Positions 100 to 22,983 of a stretch of 64,000 bases of DNA are shown one piece after another. Location: positions 21,795-85,794 of the forward strand of contig CAYPQV010000007.1 of NCBI GenBank assembly GCA_964412955.1, given 5' to 3'. Each line of letters opens with the position of its first letter. The stretch's first letter is position 1. Source of the stretch: an uncultured Hyphomicrobiales bacterium (GTDB lineage: Bacteria; Pseudomonadota; Alphaproteobacteria; Rhodospirillales; 2-12-FULL-67-15). Under the pieces are notes generated by a model. It was given only the letters and a program-made list of their open reading frames with translations, made no database searches and was not told the DNA's origin. The translations under genes and the position numbers were made by a program.

Positions 100-1068
100 T
101 CACGCCCCCTTGGCCTGCGTCCGCCGGGCTTCCGCGGGCGCATTCTTGCCGCTCTTGCCGGTCAACTGCTCGGCGAGCGCGCCGGTCGCGATCGCTTCCT
201 TCATCAATTCGACCATGGCGTTGGTCATCGGCCGCATCGGCTGGGCGTCGACCCAGACCAGCCCGACGTTCTGCACCACCTGGGGCTTATCGAGCGCGAT
301 CAGGCGCGTGCGCGGAAACGGCCCGATGAAATGCTGGAAGTGATTGGGAATTATGGTGGCGAGATCGCCCTGCATCACGTGGAACACGAGATTCAGGATC
401 GATTCCGATTCGAGCCGGGGCTTGGGCGTAACCCCGCACTTGACGAACGCCTTGTTCATCGCCTGGCGTTCGTGGGTCGAAGGCGACAGCAGGCACAGCG
501 GCAGGCCGGCGGCCTCCGCCCAGGCCATCGACGAACGGTTGCCCGCCCAGCCGCGATCGGGGATCAGGAGCGCGAATTCCTCCTCGTACAGCGGAAGCGT
601 CTTGAGGCGGCCGAGCGGCTGCTCGCCGAGATAGGTGACGCCGATGTCGAAATGGGAATTGATCAGGCCGTCGATCATCTTGTCGAGGCCGATGAAGTGG
701 GTCTCGATCTGGACGCCGGGATAACGGACGAAGAACAGCCGATCGATCATCGGCAGCACCGGCGAGCTCATCGGCATCGCGCCGATGCGGATGCGGCCCT
801 CGAGGTTGCGATGCATCAGCGCCAGTTCCATCAGCATCGCGTCGCGATCGGCGAGGATGCGCTTGCCCCATTCGAGGACGCGCTTGCCTTCCTCGGTCAA
901 TCCGCTGAAGCGCTGATGGCGCAGCACGATCGGAATGCCGAGCTCCTGCTCAAGTTGCTTGACCGCGCTCGATAAGCTAGGCTGCGAAACGTTGCAGCGC
1001 GCCGCGGCCCGCCCGAAATTCTTCTCCTCGGCGAGAGTGGCCAGGTACTGGAATTGCCGCAGGAACAT
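100..1068 (-). CDS. LysR-family transcriptional regulator
   Basis: N-terminal HTH NFGRAAARCNVSQPSLSSAVKQLE, followed by a LysR substrate-binding domain. Divergent from the TauE gene. Confidence 0.95.
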   Translation of the reverse strand: MFLRQFQYLATLAEEKNFGRAAARCNVSQPSLSSAVKQLEQELGIPIVLRHQRFSGLTEEGKRVLEWGKRILADRDAMLMELALMHRNLEGRIRIGAMPMSSPVLPMIDRLFFVRYPGVQIETHFIGLDKMIDGLINSHFDIGVTYLGEQPLGRLKTLPLYEEEFALLIPDRGWAGNRSSMAWAEAAGLPLCLLSPSTHERQAMNKAFVKCGVTPKPRLESESILNLVFHVMQGDLATIIPNHFQHFIGPFPRTRLIALDKPQVVQNVGLVWVDAQPMRPMTNAMVELMKEAIATGALAEQLTGKSGKNAPAEARRTQAKGA

Positions 1069-1134
1069 GATGATTCAACCCGACGGACGGGCCTCCCTGT
1101 TGTTCGGTTTGCGCGTGCGCGCGCCTCGGCGCGC

Positions 1135-1905
1135 ATGATCCCGGTGCTCGGAATGTCGGTGCTCGGCGCGGCCGGCCTCGCGGGCGCGGTCCTTTTCGTC
1201 GGCGTGTTGATCGGCGCGACCGGCATCGGCGGCGTTCTGCTGGTGCCGACGCTCACCTTTCTCGGCGACGTGCCCGTTCACCTGGCCGTCGCCAGCTGCA
1301 ATTTCAGCTACCTGTTCACCGGCCTGGTCGGCACCGCGCTCTATGCCCGCAAGGGCTCGATTTCCTGGGGCATGGGCCTGTGGCTCGCCCTCGGCGCCAT
1401 GCCCGGCGCGTATCTCGGCGCGTTCATTCTGCCGCACGTGCCGGGCGACGCGCTGCTCGCCCTGATCGCGTGTTTGATCGTGTTTTCCGGGCTCAACGCC
1501 GTTCTTCGCGGCGAGGGCCGTGCGCCGAGGCGCGAAACGCTCGACAAAGGCGCGCTGGCGGGGATCGGGATCGTGGTCGGAATCGGATCGGCGCTTTCCG
1601 GCACCGGCGGACCGCTGGTCCTGGTGCCGATCCTGCTGTGGCTGGAAATGCCGGCGATCGTCGCGATCGGGCTCAGCCAGACCGTCATGGTGCCGATCGC
1701 GCTGTTCTCCACCGCCGGCAACGTGATTCACGGACATGTCGATTTCGTGCTCGGCGGCGCGCTCGCCGCGATCATGATGATCGGCGCGTTCGCCGGCGCC
1801 GAAATCACCCACCGGCTTCCCGCCGCCCTGCTCAAGCGGGCGGTGGCGACCCTGCTGATCGGCGTCGGCGCGATGATGCTGGCCCGGATCGGTTTCGGCG
1901 CCTGA
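1135..1905 (+). CDS. TauE/SafE family sulfite exporter-like membrane protein
   Basis: Two repeated Gly-rich motifs (GATGIGGVLLVP, SGTGGPLVLVP) and about 8 hydrophobic segments. Start moved to ATG 1135 to avoid overlap with the LysR gene. Confidence 0.85.
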   Translation: MIPVLGMSVLGAAGLAGAVLFVGVLIGATGIGGVLLVPTLTFLGDVPVHLAVASCNFSYLFTGLVGTALYARKGSISWGMGLWLALGAMPGAYLGAFILPHVPGDALLALIACLIVFSGLNAVLRGEGRAPRRETLDKGALAGIGIVVGIGSALSGTGGPLVLVPILLWLEMPAIVAIGLSQTVMVPIALFSTAGNVIHGHVDFVLGGALAAIMMIGAFAGAEITHRLPAALLKRAVATLLIGVGAMMLARIGFGA

Positions 1906-1920
1906 GGCGAGGTCGCGGCG

Positions 1921-2979
1921 ATGGCCTTCGACATTGCGCGCGTGATACCGGATTTCGGTGACGTCGAGGGCGAAGCGCGCGCCGTACGCGAAAGCGTGGC
2001 CTTGTTCGATTTTTCGTTCGTTGCCCGCGGGCGCATCATGGGCCGCGATGCGATTGCGATCCTGGAGCGCTTTCAGTCCCGCCCCGTCGGCGACATGGCG
2101 GCGGGTCGGATTCGCTACGCGCTCCGCCTGGGCCCGGGCGGGGCGGTCGAGGTCGACCTGACGATTTGGCGTCTCGACGGCGAAACCTTCGAGGTGATGA
2201 GCGGGCGGCGCGAAGACATCGCGGCGCTGACCGCGCTCGCCGAACCGGATACGGCCGTCGTCGACCTGAGCGACGCGGGCGCGATCTTCGCCGTGCAGGG
2301 GCCGCGCACCCTCGACGCGCTTGCCCCGCTCGGCGATCGGGAACAGCTGGCGGCGATCCCCTATTTCGGCCATGCCGAAACGACGATCGCGGGCATATCG
2401 TGCCGGGTCGGCCGCCTCGGCTACACCGGCGAAAAGGGGTTCGAAATCATCGCCGACAAGACGGATGCCGCGCGGTTGCGCGCGGCCCTTGCCGAACGCG
2501 CGCGGCCGGCGGGCTTCGCCGCCGCCGATATTCTGCGCATCGAGGCGGGATTCATTTTGTTCGCCAACGAATGCCGCCTGGGCGCCGACCCGGCCGCGCT
2601 CGGTCTCGAACGCGCGGCGCCCCATGCCCTGGCCCATTCGCCGCTCCGCCTGGTCGCCTTCACCGCGACGCCCGCTCCGATCCGCTCGCCCTGGCAACCC
2701 GACGGTCTGCATCCCCCGGCCCGGGGCGAGATTGCCGTCACTTCGGCCTCGGCGAGCGTCGCGCTTCGAGGGCAAACGATCGGGCTGGGGTTCGTCCGCG
2801 CCGCCGAGGCCGCGCCGGGCACGCGGGTCCGCGACCACGCGCGCCGGTTCGGCGAGGTCCGCGTCGAGCGGATACCGCTGTACGATCCCGCCAAACAACG
2901 ACCGCGCGGCCCATGGCCGCCGGCTACGGCCGGAACCAAGCCCCAGGCTGAGCCCGAGCATGGCGTTCCCCCTCTCTAA
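1921..2979 (+). CDS. GcvT-like folate-dependent aminomethyltransferase/demethylase family protein
   Basis: AVRESVALFDFS, AVQGP, RLGYTGEKGFEI, LRIEAG and C-terminal PLYDP motifs. No gcvH or gcvP nearby. Confidence 0.85.
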   Translation: MAFDIARVIPDFGDVEGEARAVRESVALFDFSFVARGRIMGRDAIAILERFQSRPVGDMAAGRIRYALRLGPGGAVEVDLTIWRLDGETFEVMSGRREDIAALTALAEPDTAVVDLSDAGAIFAVQGPRTLDALAPLGDREQLAAIPYFGHAETTIAGISCRVGRLGYTGEKGFEIIADKTDAARLRAALAERARPAGFAAADILRIEAGFILFANECRLGADPAALGLERAAPHALAHSPLRLVAFTATPAPIRSPWQPDGLHPPARGEIAVTSASASVALRGQTIGLGFVRAAEAAPGTRVRDHARRFGEVRVERIPLYDPAKQRPRGPWPPATAGTKPQAEPEHGVPPL

Positions 2980-3004
2980 GTCTCCATTCGAATTCATATT
3001 AGCG

Positions 3005-3027
3005 TTTGATTGTGGACGTCTATCAAA
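3005..3027. promoter_or_regulatory. Putative LysR operator (T-N11-A dyad)
   Basis: TTTGATTG-TGGACGT-CTATCAAA imperfect dyad in an AT-rich intergenic region, with a TTGACA at 3075-3080 downstream. Confidence 0.5.
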
Positions 3028-3284
3028 AACCACTTATCTGATGTTTTCATTATCAACTCATAAATGATACCATTTTGACAAGCGTTCTTAAAAAACCGTA
3101 GAAATCCCAGGAAAATCAATCCAATTCGTGCCAAGCGGGGGGATACGTCCATCTAACGAGCGATAAACGGTCTATGTCCATTCCCCTTGGACGATAGCCG
3201 CCTATTCAACTCCGCCGACCGGCTTTCAACCCGCCGGACCCGGCTTCCTACAACCCATCCACAAACCGACAGGGAGAGAGACCA

Positions 3285-4211
3285 ATGGCCAATCCTGGCG
3301 CCGCCGAGCCGAAAAAGCGCAAGAAAGTCACCATCACCGAACTGATGCGCAAGATGCGCGAGGGCGAGCAGATCGTTCAGCTCGCCGTCTACGACTACCG
3401 CAACGCGGTGGTCGCCGACCGTCTCGGCGTCGACATCCTGTGCGTCTCGGACACCGGCGGCATGGTCCTGTTCGGCCACAAGAGCACCGTCACCGTCACC
3501 TTCGACGAGGTGATGATGATGTCCAAGGCGGTCGACCGCGGCTCGCAATACGGCCTACGCATGGTCGACATGCCCTACTGGAGCTTCCACGTGTCGCCCG
3601 AACAGGCGGTCGAAAACGCCGGCCGCTTCGTCGCCGAGGCCAACGCCGAAGTGATGAAGTGCGAAGGCAACCGCCATCACGCCAAGAACATCGAGGCGAT
3701 CGTCAAGGCCGGCATTCCGGTCCAGGGCCATATCGGCATCACGCCGATGCGCATGCCCCAGCTCGGCGGCTTCGTCGCCCAGGGCAAGACCTCGAACCGC
3801 GCCAAGGAACTGATCGACGACGCCAAGGCCATGGTCGACGCCGGCTGCTTCTCGATCCTGTGCGAAGTGACCAGCGAGGAAGTCTGCCAGTATCTGACCG
3901 AAACTCTGCCGGTGCCGGTCATCAGCCTGGGCGCCGGCAACAAGGCCCATGGCGTCCACATCATCGGCTCGGACCTGTTCCATCTCTACGAGGAACACGT
4001 GCCGCGTCACTCCAAGATCTACACCGACCTGATCCCGATCATCGAGGACGTCTACAACCGTTACATGGCCGATGTGCGCAACCACGACTATCCGGGGCCC
4101 GAGCACACCGTCTACATGAAGGACGAAGAGCGGGAAAAGTTCAAAAAGCTCATGAACTGGCAGCCGAAGACCCCGCTCGGTCCCGGCAAGCCCGCTTCCT
4201 ACAAGAAATGA
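3285..4211 (+). CDS. Divergent ketopantoate hydroxymethyltransferase (PanB)-family protein
   Basis: AVYD, VDMPY, KCEG, GHIGITP, LCEV and ISLGAG match the PanB fold. Canonical LVGDSLGM is replaced by CVSDTGGM. Purine-rich RBS GGGAGAGAG. Confidence 0.85.
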   Translation: MANPGAAEPKKRKKVTITELMRKMREGEQIVQLAVYDYRNAVVADRLGVDILCVSDTGGMVLFGHKSTVTVTFDEVMMMSKAVDRGSQYGLRMVDMPYWSFHVSPEQAVENAGRFVAEANAEVMKCEGNRHHAKNIEAIVKAGIPVQGHIGITPMRMPQLGGFVAQGKTSNRAKELIDDAKAMVDAGCFSILCEVTSEEVCQYLTETLPVPVISLGAGNKAHGVHIIGSDLFHLYEEHVPRHSKIYTDLIPIIEDVYNRYMADVRNHDYPGPEHTVYMKDEEREKFKKLMNWQPKTPLGPGKPASYKK

Positions 4212-4385
4212 AGCCCGGGGTTCGCGCCGCCGCCCGTGCGGGTGGGGGAACGCGGACCGCAGGCGTGATATAGCGACCCGCCGGCGCGCACCAATTTCGG
4301 CGCGCGCCGGTCCCGGTCGCGGAGTTGTCAACCGTTCACGGCCCATCGTTTCACGGCATATCGAGCACATCGAAAGGACACCGTC

Positions 4386-6092
4386 ATGGCCGCCGCCAAG
4401 AAAGCCCGCACGCCGGGCAAAGTGAAAAGCGACATCGAGATCGCCCGCGCGGCGACGATGAAGCCGGTCGTCGAGATCGGCCGAAAACTCGGCATTCCTG
4501 AAAAGCACCTGTCGGCCTACGGTCACTACAAGGCCAAGGTCTCCGCCGAGTTCATCGAGAGCCTCAAGAACCGCAAGGACGGGAAGCTGATCCTGGTAAC
4601 GGCGATCACGCCGACTCCGGCCGGCGAAGGCAAAACCACGACCACGGTCGGCCTCGGCGACGGGCTCAACCGCATCGGCAAGAAGGCGATGATCTGCCTG
4701 CGCGAGCCGTCGCTCGGGCCCTGCTTCGGCGTCAAGGGCGGCGCGGCCGGCGGCGGCTATGCCCAGGTGGTGCCGATGGAGGACATCAACCTCCACTTCA
4801 CCGGCGACTTCCACGCCATCACCACGGCCCACAACCTGCTTTCGGCCCTGATCGACAACCACATCTATTGGGGCAACGAACTGGGCTTCGACACCCGCCG
4901 CGTCGCCTGGCGCCGGGTCATGGACATGAACGACCGGGCGTTGCGCCAGATCATCAATTCCCTCGGCGGCGTCGCCAACGGGTTCGCCCGCGAGGACGGC
5001 TTCGACATCACGGTGGCGTCCGAGGTGATGGCGATCTTCTGCCTGTCGCGCGACCTGAAGGACCTGGAGGCGCGCCTGGGAAAGATCGTGATCGGCTACA
5101 CCCGCGACCGCAAGCCGATCCGCGCCGCCGACCTCAAGGCGCCGGGCCCGATGACCGTTCTGCTCAAGGACGCCCTGATGCCGAACCTGGTGCAGACCCT
5201 CGAGCATAGCCCCGCCTTCATCCACGGCGGGCCGTTCGCCAACATCGCGCACGGCTGCAATTCCGTGATCGCCACCAAGGCGGCGCTCAAGCTCGCCGAC
5301 TACGTGGTGACCGAGGCCGGTTTCGGCGCCGATCTCGGCGCCGAAAAGTTCTTCGACATCAAGTGCCGGATGGCGGGCCTGAAGCCGACCGCGGCGGTGA
5401 TCGTCGCGACCATCCGGGCGCTCAAGATGCACGGCGGCGTCGCCAAGGAAGACCTGGGCAAGGAAAACGTCAAGGCGGTCAAGACGGGATGCGCCAACCT
5501 CGCCCGCCACATCCGCAACGTGAAAATGTTCGGCGTGCCGCCGGTGGTCGCCATCAACCGCTTCACCGCCGATACCGACGCCGAGATCGCGGCCGTGCGC
5601 AAGACCGCCGAGGAACTGGGCACCACCGCGATCGAATGCAACCATTGGGCGGAAGGCGGCGCCGGCACCATCGAACTCGCCAAGTACGTGGTCAAGCTGG
5701 CCGACAGCGGCGTGTCCAAGTTCTCGACGCTCTATGACGATTCGATGCCCTTGTGGGAGAAGGTCAAGACTATCGCCACCAAGCTTTACGGCGCCTCCGA
5801 CATCGTCGGCGACTCCCGCGTCCGCCAGTTGTTCAGGGACCTGGAGGCGGGCGGCTACGGCAAGCTTCCGGTGTGCATGGCCAAAACCCAGTACAGCTTT
5901 TCGACCGATCCCGGCCTCAAGGGCGCGCCCTCGAATCACGTGGTGCCGGTCCGCGAGGTGCGTCTCTCGGCCGGCGCCGGGTTCGTGGTGGTGATCACCG
6001 GCGAAATCATGACCATGCCGGGCCTGCCCAGGGTTCCCGCCGCCAACAGCATCCGCCTCGACGCCCAGGGGCGGATCGAGGGCTTGTTCTAG
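4386..6092 (+). CDS. fhs: Formate--tetrahydrofolate ligase
   Basis: [42 protein letters not shown] and TMPGLP motifs. Confidence 0.98.
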
Positions 6093-6362
6093 AGCGCATC
6101 CCGATAATTTGGGATCGGCTGCGTTGCGTCCTGGCGGGCGATCCGGCAGGCGCGCCGCGAAGAGCGATGCCGAAGCATCGGTCGAGCGGCGCAACGAACT
6201 GGGCGCCCCGCCAGGACGCAACCCCTTGGGGCCGGGGACTTTTTCGGCACGGGTTCGTCGCAGGGCTTGCCCGTAGACCCCGCTACGGGCCGCGCCCCGC
6301 TTCTGCCCGTGCCGAAAAATTCCTCCGGCGCAGCGATTCCAAATTATCGGGATACGCTCTAG
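6089..6362. mobile_element. MITE-like non-autonomous palindromic element (274 bp)
   Basis: Imperfect terminal inverted repeats of about 34 bp (CTAGAGCGCATCCCGATAATTTGGGATCGGCTGCG ... CGCAGCGATTCCAAATTATCGGGATACGCTCTAG). Two internal hairpins (TTGCGTCCTGGCGG/CCGCCAGGACGCAA and TTTTCGGCACGGG/CCCGTGCCGAAAA). Confidence 0.8.
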
Positions 6363-6446
6363 GGTCGGCGCTTCCGGCGACCTTGATCCGGCCGGAATAA
6401 AGACGCATCGTTCCCCCGGCTTCGTGCCGGGGGAAGGAGCGCTGAC

Positions 6447-8087
6447 GTGGCCCAGAACGATTCCGCCAAGGGCGACCGCTTCGGCGAATTCGATTACATC
6501 GTGGTCGGCGCCGGTACGGCGGGCTGCCTGCTCGCCAACCGCCTCTCCGCCGATCCCGGGATCCGCGTCCTGCTGCTCGAAGCGGGCGGCGAGGACGATT
6601 ACCTGTGGATCAAGATCCCGGTCGGCTATCTCAAGACCATGAACAACCCGCGCACCGACTGGTGCCTGAAGACCGAATCCGATCCCGGTCTCAACGGCCG
6701 CGCGCTCGATTATCCGCGCGGGCGGGTCTTGGGCGGCTGTTCGGCCATCAACGGCATGATCTACATGCGCGGCCAGGCGCGCGATTACGACCAGTGGCGT
6801 CAGATGGGCAACGCCGGCTGGGGCTGGGACGACGTGTTGCCGTATTTCAAGAAGCACGAGGATTTCGCGCCCGGCGGCGGCCCCGATGCCATGCACGGGA
6901 CCGGCGGCGAATGGCGGATCGAGAACCTCCGGCTACGCTGGGAAATCCTGGAGGCGTTCCGCGACGCCTGCGCCGAAATCGGCATCCCCAAGATCGACGA
7001 CTTCAACCGCGGCAACAACGAAGGCTCCAGTTACTTCCATATCAATCAACGGAGCGGCGTGCGCTGGACCTCCGCGCACGGCTTTTTGCATCCGGTCCGC
7101 CATCGCCCCAACCTCGCCGTCCTCACCCACGCCGAGGCGCGCGTCCTGACGCTCGACGGCAAGCGCGTCACCGGCATCGTCTTCGATCACGGCGGCACGG
7201 TGCGCCACGCCGTCGCCTCGGGCGAGGTGGTGCTCGCGACCGGGTCCATCGGTTCGCCCAAGATTCTTCAGTTGTCCGGCATCGGTCCGGGCGATCTGTT
7301 GCGCGGCCTCGGCATCGAGGTCCGTCACGAATTGCCGGGCGTCGGCGAAAACCTGCAGGACCACCTGCAAATCCGTTGCGCCTTCAAGGTCCGGGGCACG
7401 CGCACGCTCAACGAAATGACCCACAATCCCCTGACCAAGGTCGGCATGGCGCTTCAATACCTGCTGTTCCGCCGGGGACCGATGACCATGGCGCCGTCGC
7501 AACTCGGCGTCTTCGCCAAAAGCGATCCCTCGCGCGAAACGCCCAACATCCAGTACCACGTCCAGCCGTTGACGCTGCCCAAATTCGGCCAGCCGCTCGA
7601 TCCGTTTCCGGCGTTTACCGCCTCGGTATGCAACATTCGCCCGACCAGCCGGGGGACGGTCCGCATCAAGACCCGTGAACCCAGGGATGCCCCCGCCATC
7701 CGCCCGAATTACCTCTCCACGCCCGAGGATCGCCGCGTCGCCGCCGACGCCATCCGGCTCACCCGCCGGATCGTCGCCACCCGGACGATGGCCCGTTTCG
7801 CGCCCGAGGAATTCCGCCCCGGACCCGGGATCGTCGGCGACGAGGAGTTGGCGCGCGCCGCCGGCGACATTGCCACCACCATTTTCCACCCGGTCAGCAC
7901 CTGCAAGATGGGCCCCGACCCGATGGCGGTGGTGGACGAGCGCCTGCGCGTGCGCGGAATCGCGGGGCTCCGCGTGGTCGACGCCTCGATCATGCCCACC
8001 ATCACCTCGGGCAACACCAATTCGCCGACCCTGATGATCGCCGAGAAAGGCGCCGACATGATCCTCCGAGACCGCCGGGCGACCTAG
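6447..8087 (+). CDS. GMC family flavin oxidoreductase (choline dehydrogenase-like)
   Basis: [46 protein letters not shown] and GNTNSP motifs. GTG start after GGAAGGAG. Confidence 0.95.
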
Positions 8088-8130
8088 CGCCGTTCCCGTT
8101 TCAACCGTAAAAGGAAGGCTCGATTTCATC

Positions 8131-8889
8131 ATGGCGCCCATTGTGAAAGTCGCTCTCGTCACCGGCGGCGGCACCGGCATCGGCCGCGCCGCCGCGCTCG
8201 CGCTCGCGCGCGACGGGTTCGCCGTCGTCCTCGCCGGGAGAAGGCGCGAGCCGTTGGATGCGGTTGCCGGGGAGATCAGGACGCTCGGAGAGCGCGCGCT
8301 CGCGGTGCCGACGGACGTGGGCGATCCCGCTTCGGTCAAGGCGCTGTTCGCGAAGACCGTGGAGGCGTTCGACCGCCTCGACGTCTTGTTCAACAACGCC
8401 GGCACCGGAACGCCCGCGGTGCCGATGGAGGAATTGACCTACGAGCAGTGGAAGAAGGTCCTCGACGCCAACCTGAGCGGGGCGTTCCTGTGTTCCCAGG
8501 AAGCGATCCGGATCATGAAGAAGCAGACCCCCCGGGGCGGGCGGATCATCAACAACGGCTCCATTTCCGCCCACGCGCCCCGGCCGTTCTCGGCGCCTTA
8601 TACCGCGACCAAGCACGCGATGACCGGATTGACCAAGTGCATCTCCCTCGACGGACGTCCGTTCGACATCGCCTGCGGCCAGATCGACATCGGCAACGCG
8701 GCGACCGAGTTGACCGAGCGCATGACCAAGGGCGTGCCGCAGGCGAATGGAACGATCGCGGTCGAACCGCGCATGGACGTGGACCACGCCGGACGCGCGG
8801 TCGCCTACATGGCGAGCCTGCCGCTCGAGGCCAATGTCCAGTTCCTGACCGTCATGGCGACCAAGATGCCGTTCGTCGGGCGGGGTTGA
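8131..8889 (+). CDS. Short-chain dehydrogenase/reductase
   Basis: [12 protein letters not shown] and YTATK motifs. Confidence 0.95.
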
Positions 8890-8910
8890 TCGCGGCGGGC
8901 GGGGGTTTAT

Positions 8911-10038
8911 TCAGCTTTCCCAAGTACCCGCCGCGGCTTCGAGCAGCATGCCGCGGAACATGCCGAGCAGCTTCTGGTCGATTTCGCCGGTCATGCCTTC
9001 CATGATCTCCAGGCTCTTTTCCGGCGGCACCGGGGGCTTGTAGACGCGCCGGTCGGTCAACGCGCTGAAGATATCGACGATCCCGGCCATGCGCGCGAGG
9101 TCGTTCAGCTGCGTGCCCGCGAGGCCGTTCGGATACCCCTTGCCGTTCAGCTTTTCGTGGTGCTGTTCGGCGATGGTGATGACGCCCCTGGGAATACCGG
9201 GGCTTTCGCGCAGGTGCCGGCTGGTATGGGTGACGTGGCTGCGCATGACCGCGAATTCCTCGTCGGTCAGTCGGCCGGGCTTGTTGAGCACGTCCTGGGG
9301 AACGTCCATCTTGCCGACATCGTGCAGCAACCCGCCGGTGGCGAGGGTGAGCAGATCGTCGCCGCGAATGCCGATGCGATGACCGAACAGCGACAGCAAG
9401 GTCGCCACCCGCATCGAATGAACGTAGGTGTAGTTGTCGTGACCGCGCACGCCCTTGAGCACGTCCTTGAAGTTGCCCTCGCTCACGGCGCGGGCGAGCG
9501 GCTCGCAACTGTCCTTGACCTTATCGAACGGGATCGGCTTGCCGTCCTCGAGCAATTCGGCGATCTGGTTGAAGGTCGCGACCGACTGCTTGAGCGCGGC
9601 CTGCTGCACCGGTTCGATCTTGTCCCAGGCCGCCTCGATTTCCTTGTTGACGTTGCCGGATATCGCCGCCAGCAGTTGGCTGCGCTTGAACGGAATCGAA
9701 ATCACGGTGCAGTCGCGCGCTTCCTTCGCCGCGGCGGCGAAGGCCGAACCCGCGTCTTCGGCCTTGGCGATGATGGGGATCGCCGCCAGCGACGAATTTT
9801 TGCGGATCAGTTCCAGTACCGCCATGCCGCCGCCGGGCGGCGCCTTCTCGTCGATGATCAGCACCGCCGGCGGGCGCGCGATCAACCCGACCACCGCGTC
9901 CCGCCCGTCGGGAAAAGGAACGACGTCGTAGTATTGCGTGAGAGCCGAAGTGATTTCCGCGCGATAACGGGGGTTACCGTCGATCAGGCCGACCTTCGGA
10001 AGTGCCGGTTTTGCGGCGGCGGCGGGCGTGTCGTTCAT
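8911..10038 (-). CDS. REC + HD-GYP domain protein (probable c-di-GMP phosphodiesterase)
   Basis: N-terminal receiver-like domain; HDNYTYVHS, LLHDVGK and HHEKLNGKGYP motifs. Confidence 0.9.
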   Translation of the reverse strand: MNDTPAAAAKPALPKVGLIDGNPRYRAEITSALTQYYDVVPFPDGRDAVVGLIARPPAVLIIDEKAPPGGGMAVLELIRKNSSLAAIPIIAKAEDAGSAFAAAAKEARDCTVISIPFKRSQLLAAISGNVNKEIEAAWDKIEPVQQAALKQSVATFNQIAELLEDGKPIPFDKVKDSCEPLARAVSEGNFKDVLKGVRGHDNYTYVHSMRVATLLSLFGHRIGIRGDDLLTLATGGLLHDVGKMDVPQDVLNKPGRLTDEEFAVMRSHVTHTSRHLRESPGIPRGVITIAEQHHEKLNGKGYPNGLAGTQLNDLARMAGIVDIFSALTDRRVYKPPVPPEKSLEIMEGMTGEIDQKLLGMFRGMLLEAAAGTWES

Positions 10039-10142: not shown

Positions 10143-11291
10143 TTAAATGCTGGGCGGAATGCTGTCGACCGGCACCAGAATTTGGCGAACGACGCTGCCC
10201 TCGGCCAGGCGGTCGAAGGCCGCGTTGAGTTGGGCGAACCCGATCCGGCCGCTCATCAATTTATCGACCGGCAACCGGCCCTGGCGGTGGAGCGCGATGT
10301 AGCGCGGCACGTCGCGCAACGGCACGCAGCTTCCGACGTAGCTTCCCTTCACCGTGCGCTCCTCGGCGACCAGGTTGACGTGCGGCAGCGCGAATGTGTG
10401 GTCGGGGTGGGCCAGGCCCGCGCTCACGGTCGTTCCGCCGCGCCGGGTCAGGCGGTAGGCCAGCGCCATCGCCTTGACCGAGCCGACCATCTCGAAGGCG
10501 TAATCGGCGCCGCCCGAGGTCAAATCCCGCACCCGGGCGACCGCATCGGGATCGGCGGCATTGACCGCGTCGGTCGCGCCCAGCTCGCGCGCGAGCGCGA
10601 GCTTGTCGGGAAGAATGTCGAGGGCGACGATGCGCGCCGCGCCGCTGAGACGCGCCGCGAGCAGAGCGTTGAGCCCGACCCCGCCCAGGCCCACCACCGC
10701 GACCGAGGACCCCGCCCGCACGTTCGCGGTATTGATCACCGCCCCGACCCCGGTCAAGACGCCGCAGCCGAACAGGGCCGCCGTCTCGAACGGCAGATCG
10801 GGATCGATCTTGATCAGCGAGTTGCGCGAAACGACGGTGTGCTCGGCGAACGCGGAAACGCCGACATGGTGATGAATGGCCTGGCCGCCGCGCCGGAACC
10901 GGCGCGCGCCCGAAATCAGCGCGCCTTGGCCGTTGGCCGCCGCGCCCGGTTCGCACAACGCGGGCCGTCCCTCGGCGCAGGGCAGGCAATGGCCACAGCT
11001 CGGTACGAACACCATGACTACGTGATCGCCGCGTTTGAGGTCGTTGACGCCGGGACCGATCTCCTCCACTTCGCCCGCGGCTTCGTGGCCGAGGGCCATG
11101 GGCATCGGCCGAGGACGGTCGCCGTTGATGACCGAAAGATCCGAATGGCAGAGGCCGGCCGCGCGCACGCGCACCAGCACCTCCCCCTCGCCCGGCGGGT
11201 CGAGGTCGACCTCGGCAATGCGCAAGGGGCGGCTTTCGGCATAAGGCGCGGAAAGGCCCATGGTTTCCAGTATGGCGGCTTTGGTTTTCAT
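10143..11291 (-). CDS. Zinc-dependent alcohol dehydrogenase (class III-like)
   Basis: LCHSD, LGHE, CGHCLPCAEGRPALC, GCGVLTG and GLGGVG motifs. Start set at MKTKAA, which overlaps the upstream stop (ATGA). Confidence 0.92.
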   Translation of the reverse strand: MKTKAAILETMGLSAPYAESRPLRIAEVDLDPPGEGEVLVRVRAAGLCHSDLSVINGDRPRPMPMALGHEAAGEVEEIGPGVNDLKRGDHVVMVFVPSCGHCLPCAEGRPALCEPGAAANGQGALISGARRFRRGGQAIHHHVGVSAFAEHTVVSRNSLIKIDPDLPFETAALFGCGVLTGVGAVINTANVRAGSSVAVVGLGGVGLNALLAARLSGAARIVALDILPDKLALARELGATDAVNAADPDAVARVRDLTSGGADYAFEMVGSVKAMALAYRLTRRGGTTVSAGLAHPDHTFALPHVNLVAEERTVKGSYVGSCVPLRDVPRYIALHRQGRLPVDKLMSGRIGFAQLNAAFDRLAEGSVVRQILVPVDSIPPSI

Positions 11292-11965
11292 GGCGCGGCC
11301 CATAGACGAAGAAGGTTGTAATACCCCTGAAGCAGCGCCGCGGTTTCGGGCGCGTCCGGGGATTTTTCGACCAGCAGATGATGCGCGCGCTGAAGATCGG
11401 CGAGGATCGCGCGCCGGCTGGGATCGGCGACGACGCTTTGCGCCCACAGGATTCCGGCCAGCCGCGCGCCGCGCGTCACCGGTTCGACCCGGTGCGGCGT
11501 GCCGGTGGTATAGGCGACCGCGTGCCCGCGCGGGAGCTTGATCGCGCGTTCCTCCCCTTCCGCGCCGATGGTCAATTCGCCGCCGTCGTAGGTCGCGGGA
11601 TCGGCGAGGAAAATCGTGACCGAAATGTCGGTGCGCAGCATGTTTTCCACGTTGCCCATCAGCGGATTATCCACGTGCCGGGGGTAGGCCATGCCCGGCT
11701 CGTAGCGGCTGACGATCGGGCGCGAATAACGGCACGGCAGCACGCAATCGTTGAATTCGCGCCGGGCGGCGAGCGCGCGCACCAGCAGCGTTTCGAGTGC
11801 CTGCGCGCCCGGCGTCGCCTTGCGATCCATTTCCAGGTTGCGCTTGGTCCCCCGCGCGGTCCCGCCCGCGCTCCCGGCGCCGTCTCGGAAACACGCCTTG
11901 GCCAGGGTCTCGTCGACGAATTCCAGGTCCTCGGCGTCGAGAACGTTTTCGATGATCACGATCAT
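11288..11965 (-). CDS. PKHD-type Fe(II)/2-oxoglutarate hydroxylase (YbiX/PiuC-like)
   Basis: HVDN, RTDISVTIFL, YDGGEL and HRVEPVTRGAR motifs; C-terminal YYNLLRLWA. Confidence 0.9.
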   Translation of the reverse strand: MIVIIENVLDAEDLEFVDETLAKACFRDGAGSAGGTARGTKRNLEMDRKATPGAQALETLLVRALAARREFNDCVLPCRYSRPIVSRYEPGMAYPRHVDNPLMGNVENMLRTDISVTIFLADPATYDGGELTIGAEGEERAIKLPRGHAVAYTTGTPHRVEPVTRGARLAGILWAQSVVADPSRRAILADLQRAHHLLVEKSPDAPETAALLQGYYNLLRLWAAP

Positions 11966-18958: not shown

Positions 18959-20917
18959 TCACAGATCACCGAGGCCCATTTGGATATAGCCGCTCGGGCA
19001 GACATCGGCGCAGATGTGGCAACCGATGCATTTCTTGTAGTCGGTATCGACGTAGCGCCCGACCGCGTGGTCTTTTTTCTTGACGTTGACGATCGCCCCT
19101 TGCGGACAATAGATGACGCAATTGTCGCATTCGAAGCACATGCCGCAACTCATGCAGCGTTCGGCTTCGTCGATGGCGCTCTGCTCCGAAAGCGCGGTAA
19201 AACGCTCGTTGAAATTGCCGAGAACGTTATCGATGCCGATTCTGACTTCTGTCCGCTTATGCCGAGGGGCATAGCCGAAATGGCCGAGAAAAAGCTTGTC
19301 GTGCCGGATGATCTCGTTGGGCGAGCGATCTTCGTAGTTATGGACCGCGAAGCCGGCCTGATCGGTCCCCCACGTCTCCCGGTGGTCGTATCCCTTGGGC
19401 TCCTGATGGTGCGCGCGCAGTTCCTCGAGCAGGCTGAAATGATGTACGTCCACCTTCGGACGCCTGGGCATTTCCAGGCCGGACAGGTAGCAATCGATTC
19501 CCTCGGCGGCGATGCGGGCGTGTCCGATCGCCGTGGTCAGAAGATGCGGCTTGATAACGTCGCCGCCGACGAAATGTCCCTTGCGCCCCTTGAGGCCGTA
19601 ATTTGAATCGGCGTTCATCAGACCGCGGCCGTTGTCGAGGTCTTCGAACCCGGCGAAATCCGCCGCCTGGCCGGTGGCGCCGACGATCAAGTCGCATTCG
19701 ATATCGAACTCCTCGCCGACCCTGCGCTTCATCTTGCCTTCGACCCAATCCACCGGGCAAACCTTCAGCGCCCGGGCGCGGCCATCCGAGCCGCGAATGA
19801 CCTCGAGGGGAACCAGGCTCTCGCGGATGTGAACACCCTCGGCCATCACGGAGTCCAATTCGTGCTTGGTCGCGGGAGCCTGGCTGATCGGCCGGCGGTA
19901 GACGATCCAGACTTCAGCGCCCTGGCGCCGGGCCGCCGTCGCGACATCGTGGGCGGTATGGCCGAGAATCACGTGTTCCGGGCGATCGTCGGGATGGGTG
20001 CTGTGAATGTTACCGATGCGACGAGCCACCGCGGCGACGTCCATAGCCGTGTCGCCGGCACCAATGACTAAAACGCGCCCGGCGAGATATTGCAGGCGAC
20101 CCTCGTTGAAGGCCCGCAGAAACGAAATGCCGTCGATGCAGTTGGAAACCTCGGCGCCGGGAATATCAACCGGCTTTCCCGCCTGCGCGCCGATAGCCCA
20201 AAAAATCGCATCATGGGTCTTTTCCAGCTCGGCCACCGTCATGTCGACGCCGATACGGGTATTGAGGCGAACCTCGACGCCCATGTCGATGATGCGCTTG
20301 ATTTCGCCGTCGAGCACGTCCTTGGGCGTGCGATAGCCGGGAATGCCGAAACGCATCATGCCGCCCAGCGACGAATAGGATTCGAAGATCGTACAGCCGT
20401 GTCCGAGGCGGCGCAGGAAATAGGCGACCGCAAGCCCGGCCGGCCCGCCGCCAATAATGGCGACTTTTTTTCCGCTTTCCCGCTCGGGGCGCGCGAACGC
20501 GGTCCCCTGCCCGAGCGCCCAGTCGCCGACGTATTGCTCGACGGCGTTGATTCCGACCTGTTCTTCCAATTCGTTGCGGTTGCAACCCGCCTCGCACGGG
20601 GCGGGGCAGACGCGGCCCATCACCGCCGGAAATGGATTAGCCTCGACCATGCGGCGGAAGGCGTATTCCTGCCATCGCGTCTCTTTTTCAGCCGGTTTGT
20701 CGAGACCGCGGGTGATGGTCAACCAGCCGCGGATATCGTGACCGGACGGGCAGCTCCCCTGGCACGGCGGCGCGCGATGAACGTAAGTCGGGCACTTGTG
20801 GCTCCAGCCGGCTTGAAAGATGTTGTCCTGAAGCTCGTCCCAGGATGTTTTACCTTCCCGGTAACGAAAATACGTTGGGGCCTTGCCGCCCTTATAGCCG
20901 TCGGTTGGAGATGTCAT
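18959..20917 (-). CDS. dsrL: DsrL paralog 2 (YRR-type, predicted NADP(H)-linked)
   Basis: SHKCPTY, PPCQGSCP, GRVCPAPCE, GGGPAG, GAGDTA and VYRR motifs; C-terminal CMSCGMCFECDNC and CIGCHICADVCP. Confidence 0.92.
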   Translation of the reverse strand: MTSPTDGYKGGKAPTYFRYREGKTSWDELQDNIFQAGWSHKCPTYVHRAPPCQGSCPSGHDIRGWLTITRGLDKPAEKETRWQEYAFRRMVEANPFPAVMGRVCPAPCEAGCNRNELEEQVGINAVEQYVGDWALGQGTAFARPERESGKKVAIIGGGPAGLAVAYFLRRLGHGCTIFESYSSLGGMMRFGIPGYRTPKDVLDGEIKRIIDMGVEVRLNTRIGVDMTVAELEKTHDAIFWAIGAQAGKPVDIPGAEVSNCIDGISFLRAFNEGRLQYLAGRVLVIGAGDTAMDVAAVARRIGNIHSTHPDDRPEHVILGHTAHDVATAARRQGAEVWIVYRRPISQAPATKHELDSVMAEGVHIRESLVPLEVIRGSDGRARALKVCPVDWVEGKMKRRVGEEFDIECDLIVGATGQAADFAGFEDLDNGRGLMNADSNYGLKGRKGHFVGGDVIKPHLLTTAIGHARIAAEGIDCYLSGLEMPRRPKVDVHHFSLLEELRAHHQEPKGYDHRETWGTDQAGFAVHNYEDRSPNEIIRHDKLFLGHFGYAPRHKRTEVRIGIDNVLGNFNERFTALSEQSAIDEAERCMSCGMCFECDNCVIYCPQGAIVNVKKKDHAVGRYVDTDYKKCIGCHICADVCPSGYIQMGLGDL

Positions 20918-20950
20918 GGCATCCTCCCTTGTCTCCCGCGTCACGGCGCA

Positions 20951-21030: not shown

Positions 21031-22983
21031 CTACTCACCGAGCCCCATCTCGATGTACCCGGTCGGGCACACGTCGGCGCAGATGTGGCAACCGATGCAC
21101 TTCTTGTAGTCGGTATCGACGTAACGCCCGAGCGCGCGCTGGTCTTTCTTGACCCTGAACACCGCCGTCTGCGGGCAGAACACCACGCAGTTGTCGCATT
21201 CGAAGCACATGCCGCAGGACATGCAGCGCTTGCCTTCCGCGACCGCCTGTTCCTCGGTGTAATTGACGATGCGTTCCTGGAAATTGCCGATCACCTCTTC
21301 CGCGCCGATGTGGATTTCCTTGCGCTTGGCCCGCTCGACGAAGGGGAAATGTCCGAGAAACATGTCGTCGTGCTTGATGATCTCGACGAACGAGCGGTCC
21401 TCGTAGTTGTGGACCGCGAATTTGGCGTCCGAGGTCCCGCGCGTTTCCTTGTGATCGTATTCGGCCGGCTCCAGCTTGCGCTGGCGCAGTTCGTCGAGCA
21501 GGTCGAAGCGGCGCTTGTCCACCTTCGGCCGCTTGCCGAGATCCTGGCTGGCGAGGAAGCGGTCGATGGATTCGGCCGCGATTCCCGCGTGGCCGATCGC
21601 GGTGGTCAGCAGGTGCGGCCGCACGATGTCGCCGCCGGCGAAGTGCTTCGGCTTGTCCTTGACCTGATAGGTGCTTTCGACCGCCATCAGCCCCTTGCCG
21701 TTGTCGAAGTTTTCCATGCCCTTGAGGTCGCCGCCCTGGCCGATGGCCGAGACGATCAGGTCGCACTCGATCTCGAATTCGGTGCCCGGCGTCGGCACCG
21801 GGGTCATGCCCTTCATGGTGCACCGGCACATCTTGAGCGCGCGCGCGCGGCCGTCAGGCCCCTTGATCACTTCGAGCGGCATGACGCTGCCCTTGATCTC
21901 GACCCCCTCGCGCATGGCGTCCTCGCGCTCGCGCGCCGCCGCGGTCATCTGCTCGACCGGGAACAGCGAGGTCAGCACCGCGGTCACGCCCTCGCGCTGC
22001 ATGATGCCGGCGACGTCCTGGGCGGTGTGGCCGACCACCACCGATTCCGGCGTCGGGATGTCGCGGCCGTGGGAGATGTAGCCGAGGCGGCGGGCGACCG
22101 AGGCGACGTCGATCGAGGTGTCGCCGCCGCCCACCACCACCACGCGTTTGGCCGCGACCTTGAGCCGGCCCTCGTTGAAGGCGCGCAGGAATTCGACGCC
22201 GGCGACGCAGTTGGGCGCGTCCCAGCCGGCGACCGGCAAGGGACGGCCGACTTGCGCGCCGATCGCCCAGAAGATGGCGTCGAAATCGCGCTCCAGTTGT
22301 TCGACCGTCACGTCCTTGCCGACGCGCACGCCGGTCTTGACCACGACGCCGGTGTCGACGATGCGCTTGATCTCGGCGTCGAGCATGTCGCGCGGCGTCC
22401 GGTAGCCGGGAATGCCGTAGCGCATCATGCCGCCGAGTTCGGGCTGCGATTCGAACAGCGTCACGCCGTGGCCGCGCTCGCGCAAATAGAGCGCCGCCGA
22501 CATGCCGGCCGGGCCGCTGCCGATAATGGCGACCTTCTTGCCGGTTTCCTTCGCCGGCTTGGCGAACGACATTTTATTGTCGATCGCCCAGTCGCCGACG
22601 TACTGCTCGACCCCGTTGATGCCGACGAAGTCGTCGACCGCGTTGCGGTTGCAGCCGGTTTCGCACGGCGCCGGACACACCCGGCCCATGACCGAGGGGA
22701 ACGGGTTGGCCTTGGCCATGCGGCGGAACGCGTATTCCTGCCACGTCATGCCCGCGACCGGCGGCTTGTCGATGCCGCGCGCGATCTGAAGCCAGCCGCG
22801 AATGTCGTGGCCGGAGGGACAGCTGCCCTGGCACGGCGGCGTGCGGTGCACGTAGGTCGGGCACTTGTGCGACCAGCCCGCCTGGAAAATCTGATGCTGC
22901 AGGTCGCGCCACTTGCTCTTGCCGTCCTCGTAACGGCGGTAGGTCAGGGCCTTCTCGGTTTTTTTCGGCGTTTCAACGTTCAC
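21031..22983 (-). CDS. dsrL: DsrL paralog 1 (predicted NAD(H)-linked)
   Basis: Same architecture as paralog 2, but with GGGDTS and LTSLF in place of YRR. Ends MGLGE. GTG start. Confidence 0.95.
   Translation of the reverse strand: MNVETPKKTEKALTYRRYEDGKSKWRDLQHQIFQAGWSHKCPTYVHRTPPCQGSCPSGHDIRGWLQIARGIDKPPVAGMTWQEYAFRRMAKANPFPSVMGRVCPAPCETGCNRNAVDDFVGINGVEQYVGDWAIDNKMSFAKPAKETGKKVAIIGSGPAGMSAALYLRERGHGVTLFESQPELGGMMRYGIPGYRTPRDMLDAEIKRIVDTGVVVKTGVRVGKDVTVEQLERDFDAIFWAIGAQVGRPLPVAGWDAPNCVAGVEFLRAFNEGRLKVAAKRVVVVGGGDTSIDVASVARRLGYISHGRDIPTPESVVVGHTAQDVAGIMQREGVTAVLTSLFPVEQMTAAAREREDAMREGVEIKGSVMPLEVIKGPDGRARALKMCRCTMKGMTPVPTPGTEFEIECDLIVSAIGQGGDLKGMENFDNGKGLMAVESTYQVKDKPKHFAGGDIVRPHLLTTAIGHAGIAAESIDRFLASQDLGKRPKVDKRRFDLLDELRQRKLEPAEYDHKETRGTSDAKFAVHNYEDRSFVEIIKHDDMFLGHFPFVERAKRKEIHIGAEEVIGNFQERIVNYTEEQAVAEGKRCMSCGMCFECDNCVVFCPQTAVFRVKKDQRALGRYVDTDYKKCIGCHICADVCPTGYIEMGLGE

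Follow-up and report, generated by a model that had tools for sequence, protein, structure and literature searches.

A block of genes near the start of a 64-kb stretch of DNA from an uncultured Hyphomicrobiales bacterium is probably the one-carbon- and sulfite-handling arm of an island for the utilization of methanesulfonate (MSA). The stretch (G000:C7:21795-85794, on GenBank contig CAYPQV010000007.1; hereafter the window, 64,000 nucleotides in all) starts about 2 kb past a set of MSA genes that share its contig. The block, at positions 100 to 8889 of the window, includes genes for a LysR-family regulator, a TauE/SafE-family exporter, a stand-alone relative of the glycine-cleavage T-protein (GcvT-like), and a relative of PanB (ketopantoate hydroxymethyltransferase, KPHMT). 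The MSA pathway itself is known, and the block is already in print, as annotation only. What is new here is that the island's PanB paralogue belongs to a distinct, rare, and exceptionally conserved clade with what its sequence indicates to be a remodelled pocket.

An msm gene set beside the window and the recurrence of the block

The 20 kb that precede the window (locus L096) carry msm genes, all within 14 kb upstream of it. On the minus strand are genes for a cytochrome c, a SoxC-type sulfite dehydrogenase (591.6 bits to TIGR04555, for which the cut-off is 420), a cyclic-nucleotide-binding protein, a Fer2-FAD-NAD reductase, FolD, a Rieske ferredoxin, and the beta and alpha subunits of an oxygenase of the ring-hydroxylating type; the msmA, msmB, msmC, and msmD set is located 6-10 kb before the start of the window. 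Divergent from msmA, at L096 15023-19872, are genes for an SsuA-type binding protein (with matches to SsuA_fam and NMT1_2), two permeases, and an ATPase; a further ATPase gene is expected near L096 17300-18100. The MsmA of this genome has the Rieske motif CXH-X26-CXXH. A 26-residue spacer is described as a constant signature of MsmA, the spacers of other oxygenases being 16-18 residues in length (Henriques and De Marco, PMC4433239). Also, homologues that are 69-91% identical to the protein bear the source name 'methanesulfonate monooxygenase large subunit'. From the spacing of the Rieske motif and the names of the homologues we conclude that the window starts just after msmABCD and msmEFGH.

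Much the same block has been tabulated beside msm genes before. Filomicrobium sp. Y, which was grown on MSA, has a 20.3-kb msm segment whose ORFs are given in Table 1 of PMC4433239 (2015) and include a LysR regulator, a TauE/SafE sulfite exporter, a 'glycine cleavage system protein T', and a '3-methyl-2-oxobutanoate hydroxymethyltransferase', together with SoxC, SoxD, ABC genes, msmHGFE, and msmABCD. The sole remark there on the two folate-type ORFs is that they are 'linked to methylotrophic pathways', and no tests of them are described; a note on the genomes of these strains (PMC4424283) makes no mention of them. A literature search, with subscription journals and supplements outside its scope, found no work on what the PanB-like and GcvT-like genes in msm islands do. 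The original prediction for this region, made from the window alone, knew of no named pathway that combined these genes; the pathway does have a name, as the MSA genes flanking the block just outside the window and the table of 2015 show. It had also suggested that one-carbon units were stripped from a methylated or hydroxymethylated, possibly organosulfur, substrate and carried to formate, the sulfur moiety being exported. In the msm context this appears right in outline, with a one-carbon organosulfur substrate, a plausible end in formate through tetrahydrofolate (THF) enzymes, and sulfite as the form in which the sulfur leaves.

How often do the genes of the block travel together? We scored public loci by tblastn with proteins of the window and of the genome, requiring a coverage of at least 40% and identities of 30-65% according to the protein (at least 40% for LysR). 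Two sets of loci were scored: the best 80 of 265 stretches encoding the PanB-like protein, which were drawn from one-genome-per-species contigs (PanB-like loci), and 80 MsmA-centred metagenome loci (MsmA loci). The PanB-like gene, present by definition in all 80 loci of the first set, was accompanied by LysR in 63, by MsmA in 55, by MsmE in 48, by TauE in 45, by the GcvT-like gene in 31, and by SoxC in 22. The corresponding numbers for the MsmA loci, all 80 of which have MsmA, were 21 for the PanB-like gene, 21 for LysR, 23 for MsmE, 24 for TauE, 15 for the GcvT-like gene, and 4 for SoxC. Among the longer loci, MsmA was found in 31 of the 39 PanB-like loci of at least 18 kb, and the PanB-like gene in 14 of the 32 MsmA loci of at least 12 kb and in 7 of the 13 of at least 18 kb. 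The usual order was a divergent LysR gene followed by TauE, (GcvT-like), PanB-like, msmABCD, and msmEFGH. The 26-residue Rieske spacer was present in 50 of 51 MsmA-like proteins from the PanB-like loci; the MsmA-like matches at loci L166-L176 were 54-57% identical to the query.

Thus, co-occurrence is far above chance for the LysR, TauE, GcvT-like, and PanB-like genes, and only for these. The other genes of the block fared differently. Fhs was found in 9 PanB-like and 5 MsmA loci, and is hence a member of the block only sometimes, and FolD in 2 and 5, respectively. A GMC (glucose-methanol-choline) oxidoreductase was seen in one PanB-like locus and no MsmA locus, and the short-chain dehydrogenase/reductase (SDR) in none of either set. 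These last two are probably bystanders, being neighbours of the block only in the closest relatives.

Gene calls in the window rested on an ORF list and on profile scans (Pfam and NCBIfam), and these agree with the seven genes and the domains that had been proposed. The LysR-family regulator (positions 100-1068, minus strand; HTH_1, 64.4 bits; LysR_substrate, 98.2 bits) is divergent from the TauE operon, and all the remaining genes are on the plus strand. The TauE/SafE-family protein, a putative exporter of an anion such as sulfite, is encoded by an ORF at 1054-1905, whose likely start is the ATG at 1135, which fits homologues of roughly 250 amino acids; it scored 144 bits to TauE (PF01925; cut-off, 32.6) and matched no NCBIfam model in the profile scan. 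The GcvT-like gene follows at 1921-2979 (GCV_T, 167.3 bits over residues 17-231) and, after a spacer, the PanB-like gene at 3285-4211 (Pantoate_transf, PF02548, 273.5 bits; cut-off, 28.7). Beyond it are fhs at 4386-6092, for formate--tetrahydrofolate ligase (FTHFS, 901.4 bits; NF010030, 928.4 bits against a cut-off of 652); the GMC oxidoreductase gene at 6447-8087, for a choline-dehydrogenase-like protein (GMC_oxred_N and GMC_oxred_C; PRK02106, 565.1 bits against a cut-off of 605) that has a 49% identical paralogue on contig C14; and the SDR gene at 8131-8889 (adh_short, 170.5 bits). The six co-oriented genes opposite LysR are thus as proposed, but a functional unit that takes in GMC and SDR is made improbable by their absence from nearly all of the loci.

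The spacer bears on the same point. It is AT-rich, 305 nucleotides in length (2980-3284), and visible as a dip in GC content (0.589 in the bin 3001-4000, as compared with 0.65-0.71 in neighbouring bins). Because it separates the GcvT-like from the PanB-like gene, the six genes need not form a single operon. The spacer is probably a promoter or regulatory region. Rfam gave no match at the gathering threshold anywhere in the window and none at an E value of 1 or less in 2950-3320, and a promoter and terminator scan of 900-9100 found sites that were no commoner than in shuffled sequence. A search for a conserved DNA element among 98 regions upstream of PanB-like genes detected sharing with the window in three loci only, as four segments in L097, L016, and L017, all close relatives. 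In a related contig from a sludge metagenome (run X11), the spacer (in the region of positions 2918-3267 of the window) is swapped for other sequence while both flanking genes are retained, and so the spacer is variable among close relatives. The stretch or part of it is contained in 20 of 24 listed runs, mostly biofilter, sludge, and wastewater metagenomes. The lone RNA run has only a few short, low-depth contigs of it, and the four runs that were compared consist of contigs, which are silent on transcription and operon structure.

Two further features of the msm genes deserve mention. Between msmC and msmD there is an inserted folD gene (L096:11103-12077, minus strand, or G000:C7:12902-13876), whose product has two paralogues in the genome, on contigs C3 and C1, to which it is 42% and 38% identical. 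The same insertion is seen in metagenome locus L097, and a divergent FolD gene adjoins msmA in L106, L107, and L110. After msmD is the gene for the cyclic-nucleotide-binding protein (L096:9551-10009, minus strand), a stand-alone domain of 152 amino acids that is found in 12 of the 80 PanB-like loci and 22 of the 80 MsmA loci and has a relative fused to a Rieske domain in L035. The monooxygenase may have in this protein a regulator or a redox partner.

A distinct and conserved PanB-like clade

The island's PanB-like protein has close kin in widely separated lineages. The best 120 of 3909 matches are all at least 82% identical to it, and the best 80 of the 265 stretches encode proteins that are 75-94% identical. 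The hosts of these 80 include Rhodospirillales, Hyphomicrobiales, Granulosicoccaceae, Arenicellales, the sponge-associated 'Poriferihabitaceae', Magnetovibrio, Njordibacter, and others, so that the clade spans the Alpha- and Gammaproteobacteria. Within the order of the host, the gene was found in three of four genomes of the same genus and in one of the same family, the other 35 genomes reaching at most 40% identity; it was found in none of 400 other genomes, an even sample of the class in which it is too rare for a two-by-two test of co-occurrence. When a library was clustered at 50% identity, a single representative (81% identical) and some fragments accounted for the whole clade; of the full-length relatives outside it, the nearest are 47% and 45% identical, and the remainder are at or below 41%. 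A quick maximum-likelihood tree, in which 25 of 69 clade members were included, recovered the clade as monophyletic (SH-aLRT, 99), with tip branches of approximately 0.05 as compared with a median end branch of 0.65 over the whole tree.

The PanB-like gene is also the slowest-evolving gene of the island. Across the loci its product has a median identity of 82% to the protein of the window, exceeding even MsmA (70%) and, by a wider interval, MsmB (57%), MsmE (55%), LysR (53%), SoxC (50%), TauE (47%), MsmC (46%), MsmD (45%), and the GcvT-like protein (44%). As a member of the PanB family it is marginal: it barely exceeds the cut-off of TIGR00222 (210.8 against 207.55), falls under that of NF001452 (253.6 against 272), and is approximately 35% identical to canonical PanB proteins.

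In fold the protein is a KPHMT. An AlphaFold2 model (pLDDT, 93.1) had only KPHMT structures as its top matches in the PDB (TM-score of 0.95 and rmsd of 2.4 to 1oy0_A), members of the PEP-mutase/isocitrate-lyase superfamily coming next. We numbered residues as in the E. coli enzyme by alignment to 1m3u and scored conservation over 69 clade members. Six charged residues are reported to lie within 5 Å of the ligand in KPHMT (D46, D84, K112, E114, H136, and E181; PMC13488298), the first of which, printed there as D46, is Asp45 by the 1m3u alignment. Their counterparts (D56, D95, K125, E127, H149, and E194) are invariant in all 69 members. The surrounding motifs are not. The motifs LVGDS (42-46), HLGLTPQS (136-143), IPVIGIGAG (197-205), and DGQILVMHD (209-217) of the E. 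coli pocket (PMC13488298) are replaced in the clade by CVSDT, HIGITPMR, VPVISLGAG, and HGVHII(T/S)SD, all four being altered in 69 of 69 sequences. Specifically, L42C, G44S, S46T, Q142M, S143R, G201S, I202L, Q211V, His at 212, and Ser at 216 are found in every member and D209H in 63. The clade has in this way gained an arginine (position 143) and one or two histidines (212 and, in most members, 209), and its members share a C-terminal helix in which Trp292 is invariant. The pocket for the isopropyl group of 2-oxoisovalerate thus appears to have acquired basic and polar side chains while the catalytic machinery was kept, which we read as a shift to a small anionic substrate.

What might that substrate be? 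We put forward, tentatively and at low confidence, that the PanB-like protein acts as a hydroxymethanesulfonate:tetrahydrofolate hydroxymethyltransferase, with sulfite as the released product. HO-CH2-SO3- would take the place of the 2-oxo-carboxylate at the Mg2+ site, chelating it through the hydroxyl and a sulfonate oxygen; the hydroxyl proton would be taken by the conserved glutamate (E181 in E. coli), and the leaving sulfite would be held by the clade-specific arginine and histidine residues as the one-carbon unit passes to THF as methylene-THF. Breakdown of the product of the monooxygenase would then be enzymatic rather than spontaneous, and the optional GcvT-like protein would be a second catcher, of free formaldehyde.

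An alternative is that the enzyme remains a genuine hydroxymethyltransferase of 2-oxo acids but uses a new, small polar acceptor, for example converting pyruvate to 4-hydroxy-2-oxobutanoate. Methylene-THF, or free formaldehyde from MSA, would in that case be consumed, and the reaction would be one of fixation or detoxification rather than of methylene-THF formation. The fold and the invariance of the six residues for metal binding and enolization speak for it, as does the breadth of E. coli KPHMT, which is reported to add free formaldehyde to many 2-oxo acids and whose acceptor range is tuned, as judged from alanine variants, by I202 and I212 (PMC7611260), the very positions that are Leu and His in the clade. 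Nonetheless, we consider this alternative unlikely: none of the 80 loci has a conserved product-using gene beside the PanB-like gene, the recurrent THF partners FolD and Fhs point to oxidation, and the organism has RuBisCO and no recognizable need for such assimilation.

The host genome, a metagenome-type assembly of 51 contigs that is 98.2% complete, has three PanB homologues, and so the PanB-like protein is not its sole PanB. The canonical panB (C1:229864-230622) directly adjoins panC (C1:228989-229810), and the protein of the island is the weakest of the three (273.8 bits, as compared with 321.7 and 317.5). The third homologue (G000:C13:19786-20679, locus L002) has an N-terminal extension of approximately 60 residues that is rich in proline and serine; the quick tree places it with P0237 (SH-aLRT, 99), and the pair with P0211 (100), apart from the panC-linked copy. 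Likewise, the canonical gcvT (C1:8224) adjoins gcvH (C1:9327). Matches to gcvH were found on contigs C1 and C24 and to panC on C1, and neither was found on contig C7, which carries the window, in keeping with what had been said of the surroundings of the block (gcvP and panD were not searched for). The panB, gcvT, and folD genes of the island are therefore dedicated extra copies. These pairs bear on a further explanation, that redundant housekeeping panB, gcvT, and fhs genes happen to lie beside msm. The sources do give all of them housekeeping names, and for Fhs a tblastn search of the genome gave a single match, with no second copy found. Yet the neighbourhood recurs in both Alpha- and Gammaproteobacteria, the PanB-like clade is isolated and altered in its pocket motifs throughout, and canonical panB-panC and gcvT-gcvH pairs are present elsewhere; we strongly disfavour chance and regard it as barely credible.

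A proposed route for the products of MSA oxidation

The GcvT-like protein, of about 340 amino acids, belongs to the aminomethyltransferase family but stands alone, and it falls under every curated cut-off. Its scores were 103.7 (cut-off, 235.85) and 124.7 (300) for the GcvT equivalogs TIGR00528 and NF001567, and 43.2 (410), 23.8 (580), and 29.4 (800) for the demethylases DmdA, LigM, and DesA. The identity of its homologues declines smoothly, from 89% to 46%, and their names are generic only. The best solved relatives are T-proteins (E value, 3e-23), but residues 14-330 also align with the THF-binding C-terminal domain of trimethylamine N-oxide (TMAO) demethylase (9q5a; E value, 6.5e-19), and there are matches, too, to the THF domains in dimethylglycine oxidase and in the alpha subunit of sarcosine oxidase. 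The THF domains of these three enzymes capture nascent formaldehyde as methylene-THF. Given the family scores and the canonical gcvT-gcvH pair on C1, the protein is evidently not the T-protein of glycine cleavage.

The low demethylase scores run counter to the expectation, part of the original prediction, that one-carbon units were released by an enzyme of the DmdA or LigM type; MsmABCD most likely releases them. One could still imagine that the GcvT-like protein demethylates an organosulfur compound other than MSA, and that it forms, together with the PanB-like protein, Fhs, GMC, and SDR, an undescribed pathway independent of msm. The GCV_T domain is present with no gcvH nearby (gcvP, as noted, was outside the search), TauE adjoins it, and some PanB-like loci that lack msm genes hold suggestive neighbours: TauE and an FMN reductase (L025), a sulfite dehydrogenase and a cytochrome c (L050 and L070), FolD (L070), or a GcvT-like protein and methylenetetrahydrofolate reductase (L043). 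Set against this, the GcvT-like gene accompanies the PanB-like gene less often than does MsmA (31 as against 55 of 80 loci), GMC and SDR hardly accompany it at all, and, of five genomes in which the PanB-like gene is away from msm, four have MsmA elsewhere, at 71-72% identity. Such a pathway is, in our judgement, very improbable. A HAD-family hydrolase is encoded in three of the loci without msm genes (L025:9006-9851, L050:4754-5506, and L080:3754-4719); its gene directly adjoins the PanB-like gene in L025 and L080 and is approximately 3.5 kb upstream in L050, and the corresponding cluster (cluster 21, four loci) includes L028. The alphaproteobacterial genomes G041-G044 (loci L025, L028, L029, and L036) have, besides MsmA at 71-72%, further MsmA-like Rieske oxygenases at 38-50%, some in tandem, which may be a related family for other small sulfonates or methylated compounds.

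Returning to MSA, we consider how the host could dispose of formaldehyde. Neither Fae nor MCH was found in the genome, and hence it has no tetrahydromethanopterin (H4MPT) route. No glutathione-dependent formaldehyde dehydrogenase exceeded the cut-off, the best candidate being an alcohol dehydrogenase of the window (304 bits against 544). With these three lacking, the THF route is the only recognizable way to oxidize MSA-derived formaldehyde here. The alcohol dehydrogenase in question (10143-11447, minus strand) is class-III-like and zinc-dependent, and its gene is 1.3 kb past SDR; it scored 321.9 bits as an N,N-dimethyl-4-nitrosoaniline (NDMA)-dependent alcohol dehydrogenase, 303.6 as an S-(hydroxymethyl)glutathione dehydrogenase, and 293.9 as the mycothiol-dependent form, in each case under the cut-off.

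We propose the following scheme. MSA would be imported by the SsuA-type ABC system (msmEFGH-like) and hydroxylated by the Rieske monooxygenase MsmABCD to hydroxymethanesulfonate, which is equivalent to formaldehyde plus sulfite. The LysR-controlled TauE, GcvT-like, and PanB-like proteins would handle these products. TauE would pass sulfite to the periplasm, where the SoxC-type sulfite dehydrogenase and the associated cytochrome c would receive it. The PanB-like enzyme would load the one-carbon unit, from hydroxymethanesulfonate or from formaldehyde, on THF as 5,10-methylene-THF, the GcvT-like protein being an optional second catcher in some genomes. Finally, the msm-embedded FolD and Fhs would convert methylene-THF via 10-formyl-THF to formate, with gain of NAD(P)H and ATP.

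Is an enzyme called for at the second step? The alkoxide of the formaldehyde-bisulfite adduct has a pKa near 11.7. A study in prebiotic chemistry (PMC6459274) cites, for pH values above bisulfite's pKa, a dissociation constant of the adduct of approximately 2x10^-4 M, and it reports that the adduct releases formaldehyde slowly and that its unimolecular breakdown reaches approximately 43 s^-1 only at high pH. If breakdown is via the alkoxide, our own, unverified estimate would put its rate at pH 7.5 at around 10^-3 s^-1, corresponding to a half-life of minutes. This would be too slow for a growth substrate, and so an enzyme may be needed.

Several observations weigh against this scheme. The PanB-like gene is missing from the flanks of 59 of the 80 MsmA loci, including 6 of the 13 long ones, and is therefore either not obligatory for the use of MSA or encoded elsewhere; in five soil-type loci (L132, L133, L137, L139, and L148) the LysR/TauE/GcvT-like block is at the outermost end of the 10-kb flank, and the PanB-like gene could have been cut off. 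Conversely, one genome (G045, of unknown completeness) has the PanB-like gene and no MsmA. The GcvT-like gene, with its 31 of 80 loci, is optional and the least constant member of the block, and Fhs and FolD are adjacent in a minority of loci only. The retention of all residues for 2-oxo-acid enolization fits an ordinary 2-oxo-acid hydroxymethylase with another substrate equally well. The likeness to the Filomicrobium segment is one of gene names and order only, and the functions throughout rest on family names and neighbourhoods.

The host itself looks like a sulfur-oxidizing autotroph, having RuBisCO and dsr genes, the latter at about 13.2-29.4 kb of the window. The dsr set includes DsrC, DsrE-family proteins, membrane subunits of the NrfD and NarI types, and two NIR_SIR sulfite-reductase subunits. 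Within it are adjacent genes for two paralogous Fer4_20 plus Pyr_redox_2 proteins (18959-20944 and 21031-22983, both minus strand), which we take to be DsrL-like.

Relation to known systems

MSA is a major product of the atmospheric oxidation of dimethylsulfide, and msmA is described as the only catabolic marker for it (PMC4433239; PMC5068391). The accepted pathway treats everything after hydroxylation as spontaneous. That the PanB-like protein is more conserved than MsmA, is rare elsewhere, and has a rebuilt pocket suggests an unrecognized enzymatic step. If it is the transferase that we have tentatively put forward, MSA catabolism would have gained its missing second enzyme, and the protein would be the first member of the KPHMT family to cleave a C-S bond; if it loads formaldehyde or its bisulfite adduct on THF, it would be the first dedicated formaldehyde-activating enzyme for that carrier. 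Its gene would in addition be a second, sharper marker for the turnover of MSA in oceans, sponges, soils, and biofilters.

In its closest precedents, the msm islands of strain M2 of Methylosulfonomonas methylovora and strain Y of 'Candidatus Filomicrobium marinum', the monooxygenase is reported to have the same architecture, including the 26-residue spacer of MsmA (PMC4433239; PMC4424283), and both islands, like the present one, have an SsuA-type ABC transporter and a sulfite dehydrogenase of the SoxC/SoxD type. The Filomicrobium segment has in addition the LysR, TauE, 'GcvT', 'PanB' block. Gene order differs, however: here folD is located between msmC and msmD, and fhs directly follows the PanB-like gene. 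Also, Filomicrobium is a serine-cycle methylotroph with both THF and H4MPT routes (PMC4424283), whereas the host of the window is without the H4MPT pathway.

To canonical PanB (EC 2.1.2.11; PDB 1M3U and 1OY0) the PanB-like protein is related by fold, Pfam family, and the six charged residues, and it is set apart from it by an identity of only about 35%, by the four altered pocket motifs, by the C-terminal helix with Trp292, and by linkage to msm and sulfite genes rather than to panC. The GcvT-like protein aligns with the THF domains of TMAO demethylase, dimethylglycine oxidase, and sarcosine oxidase alpha but, unlike them, is free-standing, being unfused to an oxidizing enzyme. TauE/SafE proteins export sulfite or sulfoacetate in other degraders of sulfonates, and here, too, a member of the family is found beside a sulfite dehydrogenase and a cytochrome c; the family is broad, and sulfite is the anion that this context suggests. 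Finally, the job proposed for the PanB-like enzyme resembles that of the H4MPT-dependent Fae: each would attach formaldehyde enzymatically to a pterin carrier, from which a dehydrogenase/cyclohydrolase route leads on to formate. The folds of the two proteins are unrelated and the carriers differ, and we know of no THF-specific counterpart of Fae.

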